Below are positions 1 through 58,718 of a DNA stretch of 58,718 bases, piece after piece. Where the stretch lies: the IMG/VR virus record IMGVR_UViG_3300025653_000041, positions 1-58,718 of that record; one strand, given 5' to 3'. The position numbers and the translations under genes are program-made. The notes under the pieces are model-generated. The model saw nothing but the letters and a program-made list of their open reading frames with translations. It was not told where the DNA came from and searched no databases. Source of the DNA: a virus (lineage: Duplodnaviria > Caudoviricetes). The first letter of the stretch is position 1; every line of letters begins with the position of its first letter.

Positions 1-496
1 TCTACTACGCCCACTAGGTGAAGGTTTCTTCCGCTTTAACATGCAGTTTGACTTTGACCCTGAAATTAAAGGCGACTTAGAAGTTAAGGCACGTGGAACT
101 GAAAGTCTTATGGCTAACGAAGTACGTAGCCAGCGTTTGATGCAGTTCTTACAAGTAGCAAGTAGCCCAGCACTTGCACCTTTTGCTAAGTTCCAATATG
201 TAATCCGTGAGATTGCAACATCACTTGACTTAGACCCCGACAAAGTAACCAACAATATGGATGAAGCTGCTCTGCAAGCAGAGATTATGAAAGGCTTCCA
301 AGCACCTGCACAACCAGAACAAGGTATGGCTACTGGTAGTCCAATGGACCCAACTGGCGCAGGTGGTGGTAATATAGGCACAGGACAAGTTCCTGTACCG
401 GGTGAACAAGGATTTAGTGCAAATGGACAAGAAGCAAATACTCAGCAGCCTCAAGCCGCTGGTGGGCAACAACCACCAATGGGAGGCATTCAATAA
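1..496 (+). CDS. portal protein, C-terminal fragment (5' truncated)
   Basis: Near-identical to the C-terminus of the full 711-aa ORF 53607..55742 that follows terminase. Confidence 0.85.
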   Translation, partial: LLRPLGEGFFRFNMQFDFDPEIKGDLEVKARGTESLMANEVRSQRLMQFLQVASSPALAPFAKFQYVIREIATSLDLDPDKVTNNMDEAALQAEIMKGFQAPAQPEQGMATGSPMDPTGAGGGNIGTGQVPVPGEQGFSANGQEANTQQPQAAGGQQPPMGGIQ

Positions 497-638
497 TTAC
501 TTAGATGATGCAATAGAACAGCATCACAAGGTAATGGAACAATCAACGGATACTGTTGCACTGCATAGACAACAAGGTGCAATAACTGTATTACGTAGGC
601 TAAAACAACTAAGAGATGAGATAAATGGAATTACCTAA
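423..638 (+). CDS. small conserved protein downstream of portal (head-associated)
   Basis: MDKKQILS... ORF overlapping the portal stop; conserved in the second copy; LHRQQGAI helix typical of small post-portal genes. Confidence 0.7.
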   Translation: MDKKQILSSLKPLVGNNHQWEAFNNYLDDAIEQHHKVMEQSTDTVALHRQQGAITVLRRLKQLRDEINGIT

Positions 639-2895
639 GTCAAAATCCCCTGATGCTTTTGAAAGGTTTAAAGAGGACCGTAGTAAAGTATATAAAGCAA
701 ACAAAAATAAAGTTGTAGAACATTTACAAAAAAGAGGATTACGTAAAGAAGCTATAGCTGCTATGTTAGCTAATATAGATGTTGAAACAGGTGGTTCTTT
801 TGACTTTACCCAAAAACAAACAGTATCTGGTCGTGCTGGCGATCCTGAAACAGTAAAAGGTGGGGGTGTAGGATTATTTCAATTTGATGATTATCAAAAA
901 GGTGTAGGTAATGAATCTTGGTATAAAGAATACTTAGAAGATTCTGGTAAAAAAGACAGTACCGAATCTCAAATAGACTACGTATTAGATGCTATATATG
1001 CAGAGAGTGATAAAGACGTAGGATGGAAATCTAAGTTAAAAATTGGAAAAGGTGATCTTGAAGTACTTAAACAATATTTAGATACTACCGAAAATCCTCG
1101 TGATATAGCAGATGCATTTGTTGACCGTTTTGAAAAAGCAGGGATACCACATTCTGATAAACGTAGAAATAGAACTGATAAGTATTTTAAAGAATTATCT
1201 TCTGAACAAAACATAAATCAAAATGAACCTATACAAGATGTAGGCAAAGATATTCCTATGAAAGACGAAAAGTTTCCTATGGAAAGAGTACAAGACATAC
1301 CAGAAGAAAAAAGTATGTATGAAACTATAAAGCCGTATGTCCCTATACTACGGCACTTTAATGAAGGTGGAGCAGTACCAATGCAAAAACAAATGGAAAT
1401 GTTTGAGGACGGTGGACTCAAAGATGAAGGTGGTTCAGTAGACCCTGTATCCGGCAATGATGTGCCACCCGGTTCTACACAAGAAGAAGTACGTGATGAC
1501 ATTCCAGCACAGCTAAGTGAAGGTGAGTTTGTATTCCCTGCTGATGTAGTGCGCTTTATTGGTCTTAACAATCTTATGCAGATGCGACAGCAAGCTAAGA
1601 TGGGGTTGAAACAAATGGAAGAGATGGGTCAAATGGGTAATAGCGAAGAAGCTACTATGCCAGATGATTTGCCGTTTGACATTAATGACCTTGACATGGA
1701 AGATGAGTTGGAGTATAATGTTGGTGGTTTTGTTCCCGGCACATTAGAGCAGCAGCAATATGGTATTAGTGGTATGCAAAAAGCTGATGCACCAACAACG
1801 GGCGTAGCAGCCGTACCACAACAAGCTGCATCAAGTCAGTATGTACAACCTATACAAGCTGCAGTGCCTACTGCTCCTGTGTACAAACCTGCAGAAGTTC
1901 CTACCTTTAAAGGCTTTGTAGGAGAGAATGTTCCCGGCGTGGATTTTGAATATGTAGAATATAAGAATGAAGCAGGTAATATTATTAAACTACGTAAAAG
2001 TAAAACAACAGGTGACTTACTAGACCCTGTACCAGAAGGCTATACATTTGTAGACCCAGAGGCTACTAAGGTAGAAGAAGCAACTGTAGCACCTACAACA
2101 CCGCAAACTACCAGTGTACGTGAAGAACAGACAGGTGGGGAAGACCGTGACTCTTATGGTCCTACTGATGAAGAAATATATGGTCCGGGTGGAGGACGTT
2201 TAAGTGTAGCTGGTGAAAAATATGGTGTATCTTTTGGTAATATGGGTGGTTTACCGGGTCCTGCGGGTGCTGTTCAGGGTGTGTTTGGATTAGCAACAGG
2301 CAAGGCACTACCGTCAGGTGCTACAGTTACTTTTCAAAATGCTGACGGTAAATTTACTCTTAAAGGAAGTGAATATAATGCTCTTAAAAATACTATTGCG
2401 GGTGCAGATGGTGGTGTAAATTCACCAGAAGTAAAAACTATGTTTGATGATTTGAAAAAATCTGCACAAGCAAGAAAAGAAACAGAACAAAAAATAAAAG
2501 AAGAAAAAGAAAGACGGGATAAAGATAAAAGAACCAAAGAACAACAACGTCAAGATGCTATTGCAGAACAAGTGGAAAAGGCACAAATAAAAACTGACAT
2601 TAAACAAGCCCAAGCAAAAGCAAGAGCAGAAATGAAAGCAAAAGAAGATGCTGCCGCTACTGCCGCAAGAATATCAAGAGAACAATCTGAAATAGCTAGT
2701 GGGCAGTATCAAGATTCTGGTGGTAATGATACTACTGCTCAACAAGCCTCAGATGATTATACAGCAAGTGCAGTTTCTGAAGCAGTAAGCACAGGAGATT
2801 ATAGTAGAGGTTTTAATGAAGGTGGCCTAGCTTCTAAACCAAAACCTAAAGTTAAGAAGAAAATGAAGCGTGGTGGATTAGCTTCTAAAAAATAA
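625..2895 (+). CDS. putative internal virion protein with N-terminal phage tail lysozyme-like domain
   Basis: N-term GLRKEAIAAMLANIDVETG...GVGLFQF...FVDRFEKAG resembles Phage_lysozyme2; followed by DDIPAQLSEGEFV motif; lies between portal and scaffold. Confidence 0.65.
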   Translation: MELPKSKSPDAFERFKEDRSKVYKANKNKVVEHLQKRGLRKEAIAAMLANIDVETGGSFDFTQKQTVSGRAGDPETVKGGGVGLFQFDDYQKGVGNESWYKEYLEDSGKKDSTESQIDYVLDAIYAESDKDVGWKSKLKIGKGDLEVLKQYLDTTENPRDIADAFVDRFEKAGIPHSDKRRNRTDKYFKELSSEQNINQNEPIQDVGKDIPMKDEKFPMERVQDIPEEKSMYETIKPYVPILRHFNEGGAVPMQKQMEMFEDGGLKDEGGSVDPVSGNDVPPGSTQEEVRDDIPAQLSEGEFVFPADVVRFIGLNNLMQMRQQAKMGLKQMEEMGQMGNSEEATMPDDLPFDINDLDMEDELEYNVGGFVPGTLEQQQYGISGMQKADAPTTGVAAVPQQAASSQYVQPIQAAVPTAPVYKPAEVPTFKGFVGENVPGVDFEYVEYKNEAGNIIKLRKSKTTGDLLDPVPEGYTFVDPEATKVEEATVAPTTPQTTSVREEQTGGEDRDSYGPTDEEIYGPGGGRLSVAGEKYGVSFGNMGGLPGPAGAVQGVFGLATGKALPSGATVTFQNADGKFTLKGSEYNALKNTIAGADGGVNSPEVKTMFDDLKKSAQARKETEQKIKEEKERRDKDKRTKEQQRQDAIAEQVEKAQIKTDIKQAQAKARAEMKAKEDAAATAARISREQSEIASGQYQDSGGNDTTAQQASDDYTASAVSEAVSTGDYSRGFNEGGLASKPKPKVKKKMKRGGLASKK

Positions 2896-2967
2896 TCCAC
2901 AATTCGTTGGCTACTCACTCCCCATGCCCGACAGTGTGGCTACGGTGGCCCCAACAAGGAGAATACA
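2896..2967 (+). promoter_or_regulatory. structured 5' leader of scaffold gene
   Basis: GTTGG/CCAAC closing stem, CCATGC/GTGTGG and GGCTAC/GTGGCC stems next to SD AAGGAG; U-G to C-G change in the second copy. Confidence 0.5.
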
Positions 2968-3834
2968 ATGAACGATACAATCATGGCAGAAGAAATGCAG
3001 TCAACACCAAAGGCAGCATTTGTAAATAAACCTTACACGCAAGAAGAACGAGTAAAGCGTGATGAGGAAGAACTAGAAGAACTGATGAAGGCACGTGACG
3101 GTGAAGAAGAAGTAGAGGAAGTAGAAGCTGAACCTACTAGCGCAGAAGAGAAAACATTTAAGAAGCGTTACTCTGACCTACGCCGACATCAGCAGAAACA
3201 AGCAGAAGAATTTAAGACTGAACTAGCTGCGCTTAAAAGTCAACTGGAAAGTGCTACTAAGAAAGAAATGAAGTTGCCTAAGTCCGATGAGGACATTGAA
3301 CAATGGGCTTCAGACTATCCTGATGTAGCAGCTATCGTTGAAACAATTGCAATGAAGAAGGCACGTGAGCAATCAACTGCTCTTGAAGAACGTCTTAAAG
3401 CAATTGATGAGTTACAAAACTCAGCTACGAAAGAAAAAGCAGAAGCAGCATTAATGCAGATGCATCCAGACTTTGATGACATTCGTGACAGTGATGACTT
3501 CCACGAGTGGGCAGAAGAACAACCTAAGTGGGTACAAGACGCACTGTACGAGAATGATAATGACGCACGTTCAGCAGCAAGAGCAATCGACCTCTACAAA
3601 TCAGATAGAGGCATTGGCAAAGAAACTAAGAGCAAGAGCAATAAGAGTGCAGCAGAGGCGGTTTCGACAAAGAATAAAAGAAGCAAGCCGCAAAGCGATG
3701 AAGCGTCTACATACCTTAAAGAGTCAGATGTAGACAAAATGTCTACACAAGAGTATGAGAAACACGCAGATGAAATCATGGATGCTATCCGTAGTGGTAA
3801 GTTTATCTATGATTTATCTGGCTCTGCACGATAA
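2968..3834 (+). CDS. capsid scaffolding protein
   Basis: Acidic coiled coil, FKKRYSDLRRH and HPDF motifs, C-terminal IMDAIRSGK; directly upstream of MCP. Confidence 0.8.
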   Translation: MNDTIMAEEMQSTPKAAFVNKPYTQEERVKRDEEELEELMKARDGEEEVEEVEAEPTSAEEKTFKKRYSDLRRHQQKQAEEFKTELAALKSQLESATKKEMKLPKSDEDIEQWASDYPDVAAIVETIAMKKAREQSTALEERLKAIDELQNSATKEKAEAALMQMHPDFDDIRDSDDFHEWAEEQPKWVQDALYENDNDARSAARAIDLYKSDRGIGKETKSKSNKSAAEAVSTKNKRSKPQSDEASTYLKESDVDKMSTQEYEKHADEIMDAIRSGKFIYDLSGSAR

Positions 3835-3841
3835 AAAAGAG

Positions 3842-3869
3842 TTGACAAGTACTTATTTATAAGTATAAC
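3842..3869 (+). promoter_or_regulatory. sigma70-type promoter for major capsid gene
   Basis: TTGACA-16-TATAAC, retained in the second copy. Confidence 0.65.
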
Positions 3870-3889
3870 TATAGTCATGTATGATGTAA

Positions 3890-4075
3890 ACGGGTTAGCT
3901 ACTTGTTTACATTGTCAATCCGCAAACGACAAAAATCTTAAAGATTACCTGATTAGCATGGCCTATTGAGTACATTGGTTGCAACCCTTGTATAAGATAC
4001 ACCCTACGTTAGACAGCCTCTGCAAAGAATTGTACTGTTTGCATCTGTACAATCCAAAACAATAGGAGATGGATT
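3890..4075 (+). ncRNA. putative structured RNA in the 5' UTR of the major capsid gene
   Basis: Several hairpins; changes between the two copies are compensatory or wobble-compatible in stems, or fall in loops. Confidence 0.6.
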
Positions 4076-5131
4076 ATGGCTTTCCCAAGAGCAGCGGGTT
4101 ACAACAACTTACCTAATGGTAATTTTAGCCCGGTAATTTACTCCAAACAGGTGCAGCTTGCATTCCGCAAGGCCGCTGTTTGTGACGCAATTACGAATAA
4201 CGACTACTTTGGTGAAATCGCAAACTTTGGTGATTCAGTTAAAATCATTAAAGAACCCGAAATCACTGTTAAGGCATACGAACGTGGTACTACAATCACG
4301 CCGCAAGACCTTGACGATGAAGACTTCACACTGACCGTTGACAAAGCAAACTACTTTGCATTCAAAGTTGACGACATTGAAGAAGCACATTCGCACGTAA
4401 ACTTTGAGTCTCTCTCAAGCAACCGTGCAGCATACCGCCTAGCCGACCAGTTTGACCAAGATGTTCTTGGCTACCTGTCAGGCTTTAAGCAGTCTGCAAT
4501 CAGTGGTACACCTGACACTGTTAACAACGTAGTTAACGGTACTAAGTCAGTTACAACTGCTGGTTCTGACGAACTGCTGGCAAGCATGAAGCTGAATGCA
4601 TCCGACTTCAACGCAGGTAATGCTGCTAACTGTGTCGGTCTGAAGCCTCGCGCATCAGAAGCTGTTCCTACAACTGCTGGTGTAGCTAACCCACTTACCG
4701 TGATTGCACGTATGGCACGTCAACTTGACCTGCAAAACGTAGACTCTCAGGGACGTTGGTTGGTTGTTGACCCAGTGTTTGTTGAACTGCTGAAAGACGA
4801 AGACTCACGTCTGTTTGATTCAGACTTTGGTGGTTCTGGTCTGCAGAATGGTTTGATTCTGAATAACCTGCATGGCTTTAAAGTCCATGTTTCTAACAAC
4901 CTACCTAAAGTTGGTACTGGTCCTTCTACTACTGGTGGAACCAATGCTAATAACTTTGGTGTGATTGTTGGTGGTCATTCATCAGCCGTTGCTACTGCTG
5001 ACCAAATCAACAAGACTGAGACTTACCGCGACCCGGACAGCTTCGCTGATATTGTCCGTGGTATGCATCTGTATGGCCGCAAGATTCTTCGTCCTGAAGC
5101 ACTTGTTAACGCCAAATACTGCTTGGTATAA
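4076..5131 (+). CDS. major capsid protein
   Basis: FSPVIYSKQVQLAF, FAFKVDDIE, C-terminal DIVRGMHLYGRKILRPEA typical of podovirus HK97-fold MCPs. Confidence 0.92.
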   Translation: MAFPRAAGYNNLPNGNFSPVIYSKQVQLAFRKAAVCDAITNNDYFGEIANFGDSVKIIKEPEITVKAYERGTTITPQDLDDEDFTLTVDKANYFAFKVDDIEEAHSHVNFESLSSNRAAYRLADQFDQDVLGYLSGFKQSAISGTPDTVNNVVNGTKSVTTAGSDELLASMKLNASDFNAGNAANCVGLKPRASEAVPTTAGVANPLTVIARMARQLDLQNVDSQGRWLVVDPVFVELLKDEDSRLFDSDFGGSGLQNGLILNNLHGFKVHVSNNLPKVGTGPSTTGGTNANNFGVIVGGHSSAVATADQINKTETYRDPDSFADIVRGMHLYGRKILRPEALVNAKYCLV

Positions 5132-5143
5132 GGAGAATAGATT

Positions 5144-5623
5144 ATGGCACTAGGTGATAACACTCTCCAAGCCGCACGTGGCAACTCGCAGCGTGGGCGT
5201 AATCCATACATGGTTCAGACCACATTTGACTTTGCAACAGCACTGTCTGACAAAGGTGGCGCACTTGCCGCTGGCGATGTCATTCCAGTAATTGCTGTTA
5301 AAAAAGGCATGATGGTGATGAATGCAGGTATTGAAGTTGATACTGCCTCTGACGGTTCTACTCTTACTGTAGACCTTGGCATGATTGCAGCTGAAGATTT
5401 CGTTGATGGTTTTGACGGAACTTCTGCAGCAGGTGTTGTAGCACAGAACCCAGCAGCCTATTCTCCACGGATGGCTGTTGCTGATGACAACATCGACCTC
5501 AAACTTGTTACCCTGTCAGGTGGCGCAGTTACTACGGGTAAACTCCGTATCTGGGCTGTCATCATGGATTGCAATGACGAAGGCGATTTGACTGCTCAAG
5601 AAGTAGCACGTGACTTTGCTTAA
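5144..5623 (+). CDS. putative capsid decoration/minor capsid protein
   Basis: Beta-rich 159-aa ORF between MCP and terminator. Confidence 0.55.
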   Translation: MALGDNTLQAARGNSQRGRNPYMVQTTFDFATALSDKGGALAAGDVIPVIAVKKGMMVMNAGIEVDTASDGSTLTVDLGMIAAEDFVDGFDGTSAAGVVAQNPAAYSPRMAVADDNIDLKLVTLSGGAVTTGKLRIWAVIMDCNDEGDLTAQEVARDFA

Positions 5624-37371: not shown

Positions 37372-37400
37372 GTTATATCATATAAGATATATGATGTCAA
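37372..37400 (-). promoter_or_regulatory. sigma70-type promoter for replication genes
   Basis: TTGACA-17-TATAAC with extended -10 TG. Confidence 0.75.
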
Positions 37401-42421: not shown

Positions 42422-42486
42422 GTAATACATACTTCACTAAAGTATCAGTATGTATTACGTTATACACTATACCAAATTCTTGTCAA
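42422..42486 (-). promoter_or_regulatory. promoter plus hairpin with ACTTTAGTGAA loop (copy B)
   Basis: TTGACA-16-TATAAC followed by a perfect 12-bp stem. Confidence 0.65.
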
Positions 42487-53606: not shown

Positions 53607-55742
53607 ATGGCTGAAGAAGAAATTATGATTGAAGACGATGCAATTGCACTAGAAGACACAGATGATTCTGTAGTTGTAGATGCCGATGTATCATCCATCA
53701 TTCCATTTATTTACGAAAGATACCAGCGTTCAGAAGATTATCGTGAACAAGATGAAGACCGCTGGCTACGTGCTTACCGTAACTACCGTGGTCTATATGG
53801 ACCTGATGTACAGTTTACTGAGGCAGAAAAGTCTCGCGTATTTATTAAAGTAACGAAGACAAAGACGCTGGCAGCTTACGGACAGATTGTAGATGTCTTG
53901 TTTGCTAATCAGCGTTTTCCTTTATCTGTAGACCCTACTGAGTTACCAGAAGGCGTGGTAGAAGATGTTAGCTTTGACCCACAGGAACCAGAGCAACTAC
54001 GTGGTGACACAGCACTGTCTACTAGCCCATACGGTTTTGCTGGTGATGGCAACGACTTGGAGCCGGGTGCTACTGCACAGTCACTGCAAGAGAAGCTAGG
54101 CGTAGTACAGAACAAACTAGAGCCAGTGCAGGAGAAACTAAAAGAAGGTCCGGGTAAGACACCTACAGCGATTACATTTAGCCCTGCTATGATTGCTGCT
54201 AAGAAGATGCAAAAGAAGATACACGACCAACTAGAAGAGTCTGGTGCGGGTAAGCATATGCGTAACTCTGCATTTGAGATGGCACTGTTTGGTACAGGTG
54301 TAATGAAAGGCCCGTTTGCTACGGACAAAGAGTATCCTAATTGGGATGATGAAGGTAACTATGACCCACTGTTTAAGACAGTTCCGCAAGTACAGCATGT
54401 ATCAGTTTGGAATTTTTATCCTGACCCTGATGCGAATAACATGGATGAAGCGCAGTACGTAATTGAACGGCACAAGATGTCACGTTCACAACTACGTAGT
54501 CTCAAGAAGCGTCCATACTTCCGTGGTCAAGTAATTGACGAGGTTATTGCTATTGGTGAGAACTACACAAAGAAGTATTGGGAAGATGACCTATCTGACT
54601 ATGCACCTGAGTCTTCTATTGAACGCTTTGAAGTACTTGAGTATTGGGGCATGGTTGATGTCGATATGCTTGAAGAGCAAGACATTACAATACCAGATGA
54701 GTTGCAAGACTTTGACGAACTGCAAGCAAACGTGTGGATATGTAATGGCAAACTTATTCGTATGGTTCTTAATCCATTCAAGCCTAGCAAGATTCCATAC
54801 CATGCTGCGCCATACGAACTGAACCCGTACTCTTTCTTTGGAGTGGGTATTGCAGAAAACATGGACGATACACAAACTCTTATGAATGGGTTTATGCGTA
54901 TGGCTGTCGATAACGCTGTCCTATCGGGTAACTTGATTATGGAACTAGATGAAACTAATCTAGTGCCGGGTCAGGACTTGTCACTATATCCGGGCAAGGT
55001 ATTCCGTAGACAAGGTGGTGCGCCGGGTCAAGCTATCTTTGGAACTAAGTTTCCAAATGTATCATCAGAGAATATGATGCTGTTTGACAAAGCACGTCAG
55101 TTATCAGACGAAAGCACAGGTATGCCTAGCTTTGCTCATGGGCAAACAGGGGTATCTGGTGTAGGCCGTACTGCATCCGGCATATCAATGCTTATGGGTG
55201 CTGCCAGTGGTGGTATCAAAACTGTTGTAAAGAATGTGGATGATTATCTTCTACGCCCATTAGGCGAAGGTTTCTTCCGTTTTAATATGCAGTTTGACTT
55301 TGACCCTGAAATTAAAGGCGACCTAGAAGTTAAGGCACGTGGAACTGAAAGTCTTATGGCTAACGAAGTACGTAGTCAGCGTTTGATGCAGTTCCTGCAA
55401 GTAGCAAGTAGCCCAGCACTTGCACCTTTTGCTAAGTTCCAATATGTAATCCGTGAGATTGCATCATCACTGGACTTAGACCCCGACAAAGTAACCAACA
55501 ATATGGATGAAGCTGCTCTGCAAGCAGAGATTATGAAAGGCTTCCAAGCACCTGCACAACCAGAACAAGGCATGGCTACTGGTAGTCCAATGGACCCAAC
55601 TGGCGCAGGTGGTGGTAATATAGGCACAGGACAAGTACCTGTACCGGGTGAACAAGGATTTAGTGCAAATGGACAAGAAGCAAATACTCAGCAGCCTCAA
55701 GCCGTTGGTGGGCAACAACCACCAATGGGAGGCATTCAATAA
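53607..55742 (+). CDS. portal protein
   Basis: 711 aa after terL; FGTGVMK, FYPDP, FFGVG, AVLSGN motifs. Confidence 0.88.
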   Translation: MAEEEIMIEDDAIALEDTDDSVVVDADVSSIIPFIYERYQRSEDYREQDEDRWLRAYRNYRGLYGPDVQFTEAEKSRVFIKVTKTKTLAAYGQIVDVLFANQRFPLSVDPTELPEGVVEDVSFDPQEPEQLRGDTALSTSPYGFAGDGNDLEPGATAQSLQEKLGVVQNKLEPVQEKLKEGPGKTPTAITFSPAMIAAKKMQKKIHDQLEESGAGKHMRNSAFEMALFGTGVMKGPFATDKEYPNWDDEGNYDPLFKTVPQVQHVSVWNFYPDPDANNMDEAQYVIERHKMSRSQLRSLKKRPYFRGQVIDEVIAIGENYTKKYWEDDLSDYAPESSIERFEVLEYWGMVDVDMLEEQDITIPDELQDFDELQANVWICNGKLIRMVLNPFKPSKIPYHAAPYELNPYSFFGVGIAENMDDTQTLMNGFMRMAVDNAVLSGNLIMELDETNLVPGQDLSLYPGKVFRRQGGAPGQAIFGTKFPNVSSENMMLFDKARQLSDESTGMPSFAHGQTGVSGVGRTASGISMLMGAASGGIKTVVKNVDDYLLRPLGEGFFRFNMQFDFDPEIKGDLEVKARGTESLMANEVRSQRLMQFLQVASSPALAPFAKFQYVIREIASSLDLDPDKVTNNMDEAALQAEIMKGFQAPAQPEQGMATGSPMDPTGAGGGNIGTGQVPVPGEQGFSANGQEANTQQPQAVGGQQPPMGGIQ

Positions 55743-55884
55743 TTATTTGGATGATGCGATAGAGCAACATCACAAAGTAATGGAACAATCAACCGATACT
55801 ATTGCATTACATAGACAGCAAGGTGCAATAGCAGTATTACGTAGACTAAAACAACTTAGGGATGAAATCAATGGCTCTGAATAA
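55669..55884 (+). CDS. small post-portal protein (allele 2)
   Basis: Homolog of 423..638. Confidence 0.7.
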   Translation: MDKKQILSSLKPLVGNNHQWEAFNNYLDDAIEQHHKVMEQSTDTIALHRQQGAIAVLRRLKQLRDEINGSE

Positions 55885-57352
55885 ACAAATGGAAATGTTT
55901 GACGATGGTGGTCTTATGGATGAAGGTGGTACAGTAGACCCTGTATCTGGTAATGACGTGCCGCCCGGTTCTACACAAGAAGAAGTACGTGATGACATTC
56001 CGGCACAGCTAAGTGAAGGCGAGTTTGTATTTCCTGCTGATGTTGTACGCTTTATTGGTCTTAATAATCTTATGCAGATGCGACAGCAAGCTAAGATGGG
56101 ATTAAAACAGATGGAAGAAATGGGTCAAATGGGCAATAGTGATGAAGCTACTATGCCAGATGATTTGCCATTTGATATTAATGACCTTGACATGGAAGAT
56201 GAGTTAGAATATAATATAGGTGGTTTTGTTCCTGCGACTGCACAACAACAACAATATGGTATTAGTGGTATGCAACAAGCTGCAGCACCAACAACAGGTG
56301 TAGCAGCTATACCGCAACAAGCTGCATCACAACAATATGTACAACCAGTGCAAGCTGTAGTACCTACTACTCCTGTGTACACACCTGCAGAAATTCCTAC
56401 TTTTAAAGGCTTTGTAGGGGATAATGTTCCGGGCGTAGACTTTGAATATGTAGAATATAAAAATGAAGCAGGTAATGTTATTCAACTACGTAAAAGTAAA
56501 ACAACAGGTGACTTACTAGACCCTGTACCAGAAGGCTATACGTTTGTAGACCCTGAAGCTACTAAGGTAGAAGAAGCAACTGTAGCACCTACAACACCGC
56601 AGACTACTACTGTACGTGAAGATGGAGGTGATGCTGACCACGCTAAATCAGAAGAAGAAAAGTATGGTCCGGGCGGTGGTAGACTAGGCATTCCGGGTAC
56701 GGATATAATTTATGGAGTATCTTTTGAAAATATGGGTACGTTACCGGGTGTATTTGGGGGTGTACAAGGTGCATTAGGTTTAGCTACAGGTAAACCCCTG
56801 TCATCTGATGCATTAGTTAACTTTAAATTAGATGATGATGTATTTACTTTAACGGGTGATGAGTACAACAAAGTTAAAACTGCATTTGACAATGATGCAC
56901 TTTCAAGAAAAGAAAAACAAGATATTTTTGAAGCTGCTAGGTATGAAGGTAAAGTGCGACAAGCAGAAAAAGCTATAGAAGAAGCAAAGAAAGCAGAAAA
57001 AAGAGTTAAAACTTCTGATGTATTTAAAGATTCAGGATTCCAAGAAACAGGTGGTGATGAATCGGTAGACACATCATCAAAGGGAGCAGCTTTAGAAGCA
57101 AGTCTGAGAGGCTCCCCAACTCCGGGTGGTACAGGTAGAGGACGACAAGACTATTCTGGTGGTTATTCGCAAGATGATACAGCAGGAAATGAAACACCTC
57201 AAGATAGTGGTTTTAGTATGGGTTCTGATTTTAGTGCATCTGAAAGAGATGAATTGGGTCCGGGTGGTTATAACCAAGGTGGCCTAGCTTCTAAACCTAA
57301 ACCAAAGAAAACTAAGAAGATGAAGAAGGGTGGACTAGCTTCTAAAAAATAA
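55871..57352 (+). CDS. internal virion protein (allele 2, no lysozyme domain)
   Basis: Homologous to residues ~253-756 of 625..2895, with a different C-terminal third. Confidence 0.7.
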   Translation: MALNKQMEMFDDGGLMDEGGTVDPVSGNDVPPGSTQEEVRDDIPAQLSEGEFVFPADVVRFIGLNNLMQMRQQAKMGLKQMEEMGQMGNSDEATMPDDLPFDINDLDMEDELEYNIGGFVPATAQQQQYGISGMQQAAAPTTGVAAIPQQAASQQYVQPVQAVVPTTPVYTPAEIPTFKGFVGDNVPGVDFEYVEYKNEAGNVIQLRKSKTTGDLLDPVPEGYTFVDPEATKVEEATVAPTTPQTTTVREDGGDADHAKSEEEKYGPGGGRLGIPGTDIIYGVSFENMGTLPGVFGGVQGALGLATGKPLSSDALVNFKLDDDVFTLTGDEYNKVKTAFDNDALSRKEKQDIFEAARYEGKVRQAEKAIEEAKKAEKRVKTSDVFKDSGFQETGGDESVDTSSKGAALEASLRGSPTPGGTGRGRQDYSGGYSQDDTAGNETPQDSGFSMGSDFSASERDELGPGGYNQGGLASKPKPKKTKKMKKGGLASKK

Positions 57353-57424
57353 TCCACAATTCGTTGGCTACTCATCCCCCACGCCCGACAGTGTGGCTAC
57401 GGTGGCCCCAACAAGGAGAATACA

Positions 57425-58294
57425 ATGAACGATACAATCATGGCAGAAGAGATGCAGTCAACACCAAAGGCAGCATTTGTGAATAAACCTTACACGCAAG
57501 AAGAACGAGTAAAGCGTGATGAGGAAGAATTAGAAGAATTGATGAAGGCACGTGAAGGTGAAGCAGAAGAAGTAGAGGAAGCAGAAGCTGAACCTACTAG
57601 CGCAGAAGAAAAAACATTTAAGAAGCGTTATTCTGACCTACGCCGACATCAACAGAAACAAGCAGAAGAATTTAAAACTGAACTAGCTGCGCTTAAAAGT
57701 CAACTGGAAAGTGCTGCTAAAAAGGAAATGAAGTTGCCTAAGTCTGATGAAGACATTGAAAAATGGGCAAAAGAATATCCTGATGTAGCAGCTATCGTTG
57801 AAACAATTGCAACAAAAAAAGCACGCGAACAATCAACTGCTCTTGAAGAGCGTTTGAAAGCAATTGACGAGTTACAAAATTCAGCTACAAAAGAAAAAGC
57901 AGAAGCAGCACTAATGCAGATGCATCCAGACTTTGATGACATTCGTGATAGCGATGACTTTCACCAATGGGCAGAAGAACAACCTAAGTGGGTACAGGAC
58001 GCACTGTACGAGAATGATAATGACGCACGTTCAGCAGCAAGAGCAATTGACCTCTACAAAGCAGATAGAGGTATTGGCAAAGAAACTAAGAGCAAGAGCA
58101 ATAAGGGTGCAGCAGAGGCAGTTTCGGCGAAAAATAAACGAAGCAAGCCGCAGACTAATGAAGCGTCTACGTACCTTAAAGAATCAGACGTAGATAAAAT
58201 GTCAGCACATGAATACGAAAAGCGTTCAGATGAAATCATGGATGCAATCCGTAGTGGCAAATTTATCTACGATTTATCTGGCTCTGCACGATAA
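57425..58294 (+). CDS. capsid scaffolding protein (allele 2)
   Basis: Homolog of 2968..3834. Confidence 0.8.
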   Translation: MNDTIMAEEMQSTPKAAFVNKPYTQEERVKRDEEELEELMKAREGEAEEVEEAEAEPTSAEEKTFKKRYSDLRRHQQKQAEEFKTELAALKSQLESAAKKEMKLPKSDEDIEKWAKEYPDVAAIVETIATKKAREQSTALEERLKAIDELQNSATKEKAEAALMQMHPDFDDIRDSDDFHQWAEEQPKWVQDALYENDNDARSAARAIDLYKADRGIGKETKSKSNKGAAEAVSAKNKRSKPQTNEASTYLKESDVDKMSAHEYEKRSDEIMDAIRSGKFIYDLSGSAR

Positions 58295-58534
58295 AAAGAG
58301 TTGACAAGTAGTTATTTATAAGTATAACTATAGTCATGTATGATGTAAACAGGTTAGCTACTTGTTTACATTGTCAATCCGCAAACGACAAAAATCTTCA
58401 AGATTACCTGAATAACATGGCCTATTGAGTACATTAGTTGCAACTCTTGTACAAAATACACCCTACGTTAGACAGCCTCTGCCAAGAATTGTATTGTTTG
58501 CATCTGTACAATCCAAAACAATAGGAGATGGATT

Positions 58535-58718
58535 ATGGCTTTCCCAAGCGCACCGGGTTATAACAACTTGCCGAATGGCAATTTTAGCCCCGTAATTTAC
58601 TCCAAACAGGTGCAGCTTGCATTCCGCAAGGCCGCTGTTTGTGACGCAATTACGAATAACGACTACTTTGGTGAAATCGCAAACTTTGGTGATTCAGTTA
58701 AAATCATTAAAGAACCCG
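58535..58718 (+). CDS. major capsid protein N-terminal fragment (allele 2, 3' truncated)
   Basis: MAFPSAPGYNNLPNGNFSPVIYSKQ... Confidence 0.88.
   Translation, partial: MAFPSAPGYNNLPNGNFSPVIYSKQVQLAFRKAAVCDAITNNDYFGEIANFGDSVKIIKEP

Follow-up and report, generated by a model that had tools for sequence, protein, structure and literature searches.

The leader that precedes the major capsid gene in a 58,718-nucleotide stretch of tailed-phage DNA (IMG/VR record IMGVR_UViG_3300025653_000041, Caudoviricetes; the whole stretch is called the window here) is a conserved plus-strand RNA structure, located at 3870-4078 between a promoter and the gene itself. It is a real, widespread and strongly supported structured RNA for which no characterisation was found, and the mechanism proposed for it below is one that we infer. 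The leader was recovered upstream of the capsid gene in more than 100 distinct contigs of HMO-2011-type phages, including Puniceispirillum phage HMO-2011 itself and the roseophages CRP-1 and CRP-345. Its architecture is modelled as a 5′ hairpin (P1) followed by one long irregular hairpin (P2-P8), which is closed by GCAAAC/GTTTGC.

Covariation of the leader helices

Relatives were collected by a capsid protein search of IMG/VR, which returned at least 598 matches with the best 80 kept, and 160 loci were added by scans with the capsid of CRP-1 and with one divergent capsid. The 243 loci were reduced to 234 with enough upstream sequence, 169 distinct upstream cuts and 123 clusters at <95% identity. 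Alignment A1 was made with MAFFT from 64 leaders and was not fitted to any structure model. A model of 33 pairs was derived by RNAalifold on A1 and its subclades together with a reading of the alignment by eye. A covariance model (R1) was built from the related capsid leaders, as the initial annotation of this DNA had proposed. Alignment A2 holds the 86 leaders fitted to R1; its input was the window and 99 loci selected from 109 clusters at <92% identity, leaving out ten close relatives of the window or of the main clades and six loci of a sister clade negative for R1. The elements of the model in the window are as follows.

3883-3895 / 3901-3913, plus strand: P1, 5′ hairpin of 13 pairs with loop UAGCU (3896-3900)
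3922-3927 / 4037-4042, plus strand: P2 (GCAAAC/GTTTGC), closing the main domain
3945-3948 opposite 4017-4018, plus strand: loop A (UUAC opposite CC), adjoining P4
3949-3951 / 4014-4016, plus strand: P4 (CUG/CAG)
3960-3961 / 4003-4004, plus strand: P5 (GG/CC)
3962-3963 opposite 4000-4002, plus strand: loop B (CC opposite CAC), between P5 and P6
3964-3966 / 3997-3999, plus strand: P6 (5′ strand UAU)
3972-3975 / 3988-3991, plus strand: P7, in the apical part (feature 3971-3992)
3977-3978 / 3985-3986, plus strand: P8, apical hairpin with hexaloop UUGCAA (3979-3984) and loop core UGCA (3980-3983)
4037-4048, plus strand: 12-mer GTTTGCATCTGT, made of the 3′ strand of P2 (4037-4042) and ATCTGT of no assigned role

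Pairing on A1 is far above its controls, as evident from the 91.8% of 1995 cells that hold standard pairs, as compared to 29.8-40.5% in controls with the 3′ partners shifted by 1-3 columns (slid controls). Changes on both sides of a pair occur in 337 cells against 27-64 in the slid controls, and the covariation score of 0.455 (at most 0.066 in controls) was reached by none of 500 shuffles. On the model-fitted A2, both-side changes were recorded at all 33 pairs. The claim that a conserved, covarying RNA lies here is thus borne out in 64 and in 86 relatives, with covariation well beyond both shuffled and slid controls.

The individual helices display the same pattern to different degrees. P1 has both-side changes at 11 of its 13 pairs on A1 and at 13 of 13 on A2, where 82.5% of the cells are paired. 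P2 is paired in 95.9% of A1 cells and is mostly invariant, with 15 changes from G-C to G-U; its both-side changes are found on the wider A2. The pair 3951-4014 of P4 is G-C in 39, A-U in 15 and G-U in 7 leaders of A1, and on A2 all cells of the helix are paired (100%). In P6, 39 leaders have C-G and 23 have U-A at 3964-3999, which is broken in none, and the pair 3965-3998 is G-C in 44, A-U in 17 and G-U in one (both on A1). P7 and P8 together show both-side changes at all six pairs on both alignments. Between stretches whose stem sides change together, A1 retains near-invariant blocks (GCAAAC, ACCUGA, GGCC, CACCC, AGCCUCU and GUUUGCAUCUGU). The 12-mer GTTTGCATCTGT is nearly invariant in the 64 leaders and is replaced in more distant clades.

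Fold z-scores were −1.68 and −3.01 for the plus strand and −0.15 for the minus strand. The better fold of the plus strand and the frequent G-U pairs indicate that the plus-strand RNA is the folded molecule.

The initial annotation had described a row of five local hairpins, supported by a second leader copy near the other end of the record. This copy exists and differs from the first at 10 of 209 nucleotides. All the pairing changes ascribed to it are there: G3892>A turns G-U to A-U in stem 1, G3977>A with C3986>T replaces G-C by A-U in stem 3, T3993>C converts the outer G-U of stem 3 (partner G3970) to G-C, C4035>T turns C-G to U-G in stem 5, and A3940>C and A4024>C alter only the loops of stems 2 and 4. 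Every substitution inside these stems keeps pairing, and the extra differences at 3953, 3956 and 3996 do not conflict with that claim, since they fall in stretches which the five-hairpin model leaves unpaired. The row itself survives in part. Stem 1 (equal to P1) and stem 3 (P8 and part of P7) are features of the family, and stems 2, 4 and 5 are not. Stem 2 (AATCT/AGATT) is paired in 51.5% of the 86 leaders with fewer both-side changes than in shuffles, and stems 4 and 5 are paired in 60.4% and 54-56%, respectively, against 38-51% in slid controls. In close relatives of the window, these three stems may nevertheless form. The five-hairpin model lacks the long-range helices P2, P4, P5 and P6, and the element is therefore not a row of hairpins.

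Further pairings were counted on A2. AGA at 3942-3944 (GGA in most relatives) and UCU at 4019-4021 are paired in 72.9%, and both-side change is limited to one pair in one sequence. A long-range UCUU/AAGA alternative was rejected, being 45.6% paired and not clearly above controls. Among the candidate pairings counted, no conserved alternative helix stood clearly above controls, in stem regions whose alignment relies on sequence alone and may be faulty from one clade to another. In the clade of the window, AAUCC (4051-4055) could pair with GGAUU (4071-4075), which would place the Shine-Dalgarno sequence in the loop of a 5-bp hairpin ending at the start codon; both strands are identical in all close relatives and hence carry no covariation information.

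Distribution of the element

R1 finds the window leader at 3870-4078 (185.5 bits) and its second copy at 58329-58537 (181.5 bits), both on the plus strand, and nothing else in the window. The scores in named phages were 195.6 bits for HMO-2011, 90.5 bits for CRP-1 and 88.3 bits for CRP-345, and the window and 99 loci gave 86 matches at E ≤ 1e-5. In a core-pattern scan of IMG/VR, for which 80 loci were listed, a capsid homologue follows the match on the same strand at a distance of 20-200 nt in 70 loci; the remaining 10 are not recognised by R1. Among these loci, the element is confined to the position before the capsid gene. The same core pattern proved too loose for bacterial and archaeal genomes, where it hit at least 120 stretches, mostly in GC-rich genomes, and is uninformative on cellular presence; R1 gave no match at E ≤ 0.01 among 80 listed stretches of these.

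Phages of the HMO-2011 type infect SAR116 and Roseobacter hosts and are among the most abundant marine phage types. In the lineages examined, the element precedes the most highly expressed structural gene, and the leader of the sister clade differs.

Invariant unpaired bases and their arrangement

The only bases invariant in all 86 leaders are A3947, C3962, C3963, C4000, A4001, C4002, C4017 and C4018. All eight are unpaired, and no paired base is invariant in the 86; C3948 is constant in 85. Both internal loops consist of YAC opposite CC, and each strand of the consensus reads, from 5′ to 3′, helix, YAC, helix, linker, helix, CC and helix, so that loops A and B are related by a pseudo-dyad. 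The combination of variable helices with unchanging loops points to a specific tertiary fold or a binding site, which is more than a stabilising stem would display. The fold is new and well defined, and eight absolutely invariant unpaired bases call for an explanation.

In at least 30 of the 86 leaders (L036, L103, L111 and 27 others), P1 is capped by a small hairpin, GCC-YCY...GGA-YUAC-CU. The YAC/CC loop and its flanking helix recur there as a third copy of the motif, which is lost in the clade of the window.

Self-complementary apical loop

The centre of the P8 hexaloop is self-complementary, its inner pair in 73 of 73 and its outer pair in 68 of 73 leaders. When the 13 loops of odd length, read by eye and all palindromic, are included, 81 of the 86 leaders have a palindromic tip; among those of odd length, UGAUCA is carried by six leaders from the lines of CRP-1, CRP-345 and L092, and five short hairpins have GUAC. 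The palindrome differs by clade (GGCC, UGCA, GUAC, GCGC or GAUC), the hexaloops being AGGCCA, CGGCCA, UGGCCG, UUGCAA (as in the window), UGUACA, AGCGCA, UGCGCA and CGAUCA. A purine follows the palindrome on its 3′ side in 71 of 73 leaders. The self-complementarity extends to 6 nt in five UGCA, four hexaloop GUAC and six UGAUCA cases, and does not do so for the CGUACA and CGAUCA cores or for most GGCC cores. In 42 of 73 leaders, the loop bases on either side of the palindrome form no pair, and hence the palindrome is not a mere continuation of the stem. Adjacent bases inside a hexaloop cannot pair with each other.

The loop core changed state 19 times on a tree of the leaders, and five of these changes give non-palindromes, all at single tips; the counts are approximate, as the tree is a quick maximum-likelihood one with the loop columns excluded and many weak forks. 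Each switch from one palindrome to another needs two matched substitutions, which makes selection for loop-loop pairing the simplest reading and the leader a clean natural example of a loop kept self-complementary by selection. The sequence pattern permits the tentative suggestion that the capsid mRNA leader dimerises through its apical loop as a kissing-loop homodimer, and dimerisation of a phage mRNA is thereby made directly testable. If so, a rising concentration of capsid mRNA would lead to pairing or clustering and would tie translation, stability or the site of capsid synthesis to mRNA dose, and the invariant YAC/CC dyad would be a docking site for a dimeric partner. To our knowledge, no bacteriophage mRNA has so far been described to dimerise through a palindromic loop, and the leader would be the first such element.

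By our own count, the P1 loop is also palindromic (AGCU or GCGC) in 16 of the 23 leaders of the window's clade, with AGCU in the window, GCGC in many relatives of the main clade and UCGCU or similar in the other leaders. If both loops were to kiss, the RNA would be bivalent and could build chains or clusters. An attempt to extract the apical hairpin from all 171 upstream cuts by regular expression picked wrong segments and was replaced by the model-based alignment.

Proposed role in capsid expression and alternatives

A cis-acting recognition platform, which controls translation or stability of the capsid mRNA through a protein or through RNA-RNA pairing, appears rather probable as the role of the element. 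The leader would be the structured 5′ untranslated region of a capsid mRNA transcribed from its own TTGACA-N16-TATAAC promoter. Its folded domain would be bound by a protein, possibly a dimer fitting the dyad, and alternatively or additionally a second copy of the same RNA would bind through the palindromic loop. Binding would then set the amount of capsid protein via translation initiation or mRNA lifetime, with both the partner and the direction of the regulation presumed here. P1, close to the 5′ end, probably adds protection from decay that depends on that end. Such a platform would offer a handle on the post-transcriptional setting of capsid dosage in tailed phages, and promoter and leader together form a compact cassette for expression in marine alphaproteobacteria.

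Several observations weigh against this role or against the strength of its support. The pair counts on A2 are inflated, since that alignment was fitted to R1. The conserved domain ends at 4042-4048, at least 16 nt before the Shine-Dalgarno sequence at 4064, so that the ribosome site is not directly covered by it. The predicted accessibility of the Shine-Dalgarno sequence is uninformative, with a mean of 0.40 unpaired and values above 0.5 in 32 of 75 leaders. The sister clade, with 13 non-redundant leaders, has no R1 match. Finally, contigs from RNA libraries cross the promoter, starting at 3490, 3771, 3781 and 3811, and carry-over of DNA is possible. In contigs of four metatranscriptome runs, the leader is continuous with the coding region of the capsid gene, and the contigs that start at 3771-3811 (three runs) probably begin at strain break points. 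As they are contigs only and extend upstream of the promoter, no start site, strand, level or expression can be read from them; they lend weak support to transcription and none to the start site. The low depth outside 3500-5620 carries no weight, because the runs were retrieved using that stretch.

The leaders of the sister clade (L182, L186, L188, L189, L198 and others) have the same promoter and a P1-like hairpin with a different core. In their consensus fold, a conserved UCCUUA is predicted to pair with the Shine-Dalgarno sequence UAAGGA, and a separate hairpin lies just 5′ of the ribosome site; both sides of this pairing are invariant, so there is no covariation by which to judge it. The predicted pairing is a hint that leaders at the capsid position may control translation.

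The alternative that fares best, although rather unlikely, is that the leader serves only to stabilise or process the mRNA: it would shield the very abundant capsid mRNA from RNases acting at the 5′ end, or would provide a site for cutting it from a longer late transcript, and would have no specific partner. P1, with 12-13 bp, stands within about 10 nt of the start that we infer; the stretch from the upstream gene to the promoter showed no terminator-like site; and the contigs across the promoter fit read-through transcripts that need processing. A stabiliser, however, needs stems and not eight unpaired positions that are invariant in 86 of 86 leaders, nor would it need the self-complementarity of the loop to be restored after every change. 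Even if the leader is only a stabiliser, it is a new RNA family suited to Rfam.

A riboswitch, in which the P4-P6 core would be an aptamer for a metabolite or ion and make capsid synthesis depend on the condition of the host cell, is distinctly unlikely. The leader bears the usual aptamer signature, with covarying helices around invariant internal-loop bases, and UCU or UCC after loop A resembles an anti-Shine-Dalgarno sequence. This resemblance is seen in UCU 4019-4021 after the invariant CC and becomes CCUCCU in some relatives; in one of these (L010), the fold model predicts the Shine-Dalgarno sequence to be fully paired. Against a riboswitch stand the lack of any Rfam riboswitch match and of any conserved alternative pairing or terminator among those looked for, and the palindromic loop is left unexplained by it. 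The capsid gene is the only associated gene and thus suggests no ligand.

There is only a small chance that the element acts in trans, as a stable processed dimer or oligomer with a role in virion assembly, localised capsid synthesis or counter-defence. Its loops would suit such an RNA, the apical one being self-complementary in 81 of 86 leaders and the P1 loop palindromic in 16 of 23 of the window's clade, which would make it bivalent. The element is, however, always fused to the capsid gene, with no 3′ end or terminator-like site found before the Shine-Dalgarno sequence, and the continuous RNA contigs give no sign of a separate small RNA.

A new self-cleaving ribozyme trimming the 5′ end of the capsid mRNA is very improbable: invariant internal loops do lie between covarying helices, and some relatives read CUGACGAG, which resembles a hammerhead core, but the window reads CUGAUUAG and no ribozyme family matched. 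The hammerhead itself (an unpaired CUGANGA core with GAAA and three stems) was rejected, as the CUG of the window pairs and covaries with CAG (G-C in 39, A-U in 15). A DNA-level element, namely an operator, origin, packaging or methylation site at the 4-bp palindrome, is hardly credible, for although the loop cores GGCC, GATC, GCGC, GTAC and TGCA are typical 4-bp recognition palindromes, the numerous G-U pairs would correspond to A-C mismatches in the complementary strand, only the plus strand folds better than shuffles, and the palindrome changes by clade yet stays at the tip of a covarying hairpin, with a non-pair separating it from the stem in 42 of 73 leaders.

Comparison with known RNAs

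The initial annotation had left open whether a known Rfam family covers the leader. Rfam 15 (4227 models) gave no match at E ≤ 10 in 3700-4200 of the window, and in six diverse relatives at E ≤ 1 it gave one chance-level snoRNA match elsewhere in a locus and nothing on the leader. A literature search on HMO-2011, on kissing loops or mRNA dimerisation of phage capsid genes and on structured phage RNA found no description of it.

The palindromic loop brings to mind the dimerisation initiation site (DIS, SL1) of HIV-1 and oskar mRNA, both of which have palindromic kissing loops. As in DIS-type hairpins, the apical loop has a self-complementary centre of 4-6 nt beside an unpaired purine, and the palindromes are lineage-specific with self-complementarity kept. 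Unlike the HIV-1 element, the leader belongs to the mRNA of a DNA phage and not to an RNA genome, and its core is mostly 4 nt; neither sequence nor family relationship connects the two.

Translational or autogenous control in phages is exemplified by the gene 32 pseudoknot of T4 and the autoregulation of the P22 scaffolding protein. Like these operators, the element precedes a highly expressed phage gene as a structured leader and could bind a phage protein that balances structural output. It differs in its much larger size (about 170 nt), in ending at least 16 nt before the Shine-Dalgarno sequence, and in having no homology to them and no known binding protein. Riboswitch aptamers share the covarying helices around strictly invariant internal-loop bases and the position in a 5′ leader, but the leader lacks an Rfam match, a recognisable expression platform and a candidate ligand, and its sole cargo is the capsid gene. 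The packaging RNA of phi29, GOLLD, ROOL and OLE are phage-linked or bacterial RNAs that assemble via intermolecular contacts; they are free non-coding RNAs, whereas the leader forms part of an mRNA, is much smaller than either GOLLD or ROOL and has no sequence match to any of them. All these likenesses (to DIS hairpins, translational operators, aptamers and 5′ stabiliser hairpins) are functional analogies, and none is a family relationship.

Comparative candidates of the same general kind are available. Fremin et al. (2023; PMC10690425) report 8495 unnamed candidate structured RNAs (DNAVirus_X) of 29-151 nt from IMG/VR, five of which lie upstream of the major capsid protein domain PHA00201, and mention the T4 gene 32 case. 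GP20-a (RF02991), GP20-b (RF03003) and the DNAVirus_X candidates are, as described in passages of that paper, likewise comparative candidate cis-regulatory RNAs directly upstream of phage genes (PMC10690425). GP20-a and GP20-b differ from the leader in that both are in Rfam and neither matches it. Pieces of the leader may be among the unnamed candidates, and no account of the fold, of the invariant loops or of the palindromic tip was found in the main-text passages of Fremin et al. (PMC10690425).

Organisation of the locus and its promoter

The two ends of the record represent the same genome region, as evident from the 83-95% identity between 1-4259 and 55247-58718 of the window (the first 4.3 kb and the last 3.5 kb), with 92.5% between 2809-4259 and 57266-58718. 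Accordingly, the leader near 58350-58534 represents the same locus in a variant strain. The record looks like a circularly permuted or concatemeric assembly in which two strain variants were joined, and the redundancy of the ends would put the true genome at about 55.2 kb out of the 58,718 bases. The closest named relative is HMO-2011, with 80.5% identity across 341 bases around the leader. The features that flank the fold are given below.

3842-3869, plus strand: predicted sigma-70-type promoter, with −35 TTGACA (3842-3847), a 16-nt spacer and −10 TATAAC (3864-3869)
4064-4068, plus strand: Shine-Dalgarno sequence AGGAG, followed by ATG (4076-4078) of the major capsid gene (4076-5131)
58301-58537, plus strand: second copy of promoter (58301-58328) and leader (58329-58537), the strain variant at the overlapping record end

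The gene at 4076-5131 was assigned as the major capsid gene by the match of its protein to phrog_267 (major head protein) at E 7e-64, and its homologue in HMO-2011 is annotated as 'putative coat protein'. The upstream gene (2968-3834) encodes 288 amino acids with no known function assigned, and by position alone its product could be a scaffolding protein. Two genes upstream of the leader, roseophage CRP-345 (L083, 722-1426) has an annotated class I S-adenosylmethionine-dependent methyltransferase, and the window has none there. No tRNA or tmRNA was found in the window. A small protein encoded in the leader was considered and rejected: the longest open reading frame has 31 amino acids, and the start codon of a 30-amino-acid frame on the plus strand at 3877 is missing from most relatives.

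The order of promoter and capsid Shine-Dalgarno sequence around the leader agrees with the initial annotation, and transcription would start near 3875-3878. Among the 169 non-redundant upstream cuts, 133 contain TTGACA-N16/17-TATAAC with both hexamers unchanged. Of the 36 others, most end before the −35 hexamer because their leaders are longer, and two lack the pattern. The distance from the −10 hexamer to the ATG in the upstream cuts of relatives is 180-229 nt (median 208). A scan for consensus promoters did not pick up the capsid promoter, since its −10 hexamer (TATAAC) ends in C. The pattern occurs at four sites in the window as compared to 0.06 expected. Two exact sites besides those of the leader copies lie at 37372-37400 and 42459-42486, both on the minus strand, before genes with leaders of about 30 and 80 nt. 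The same promoter type thus seems to be used several times in the genome, and the long structured leader seems to be present only at the capsid gene.

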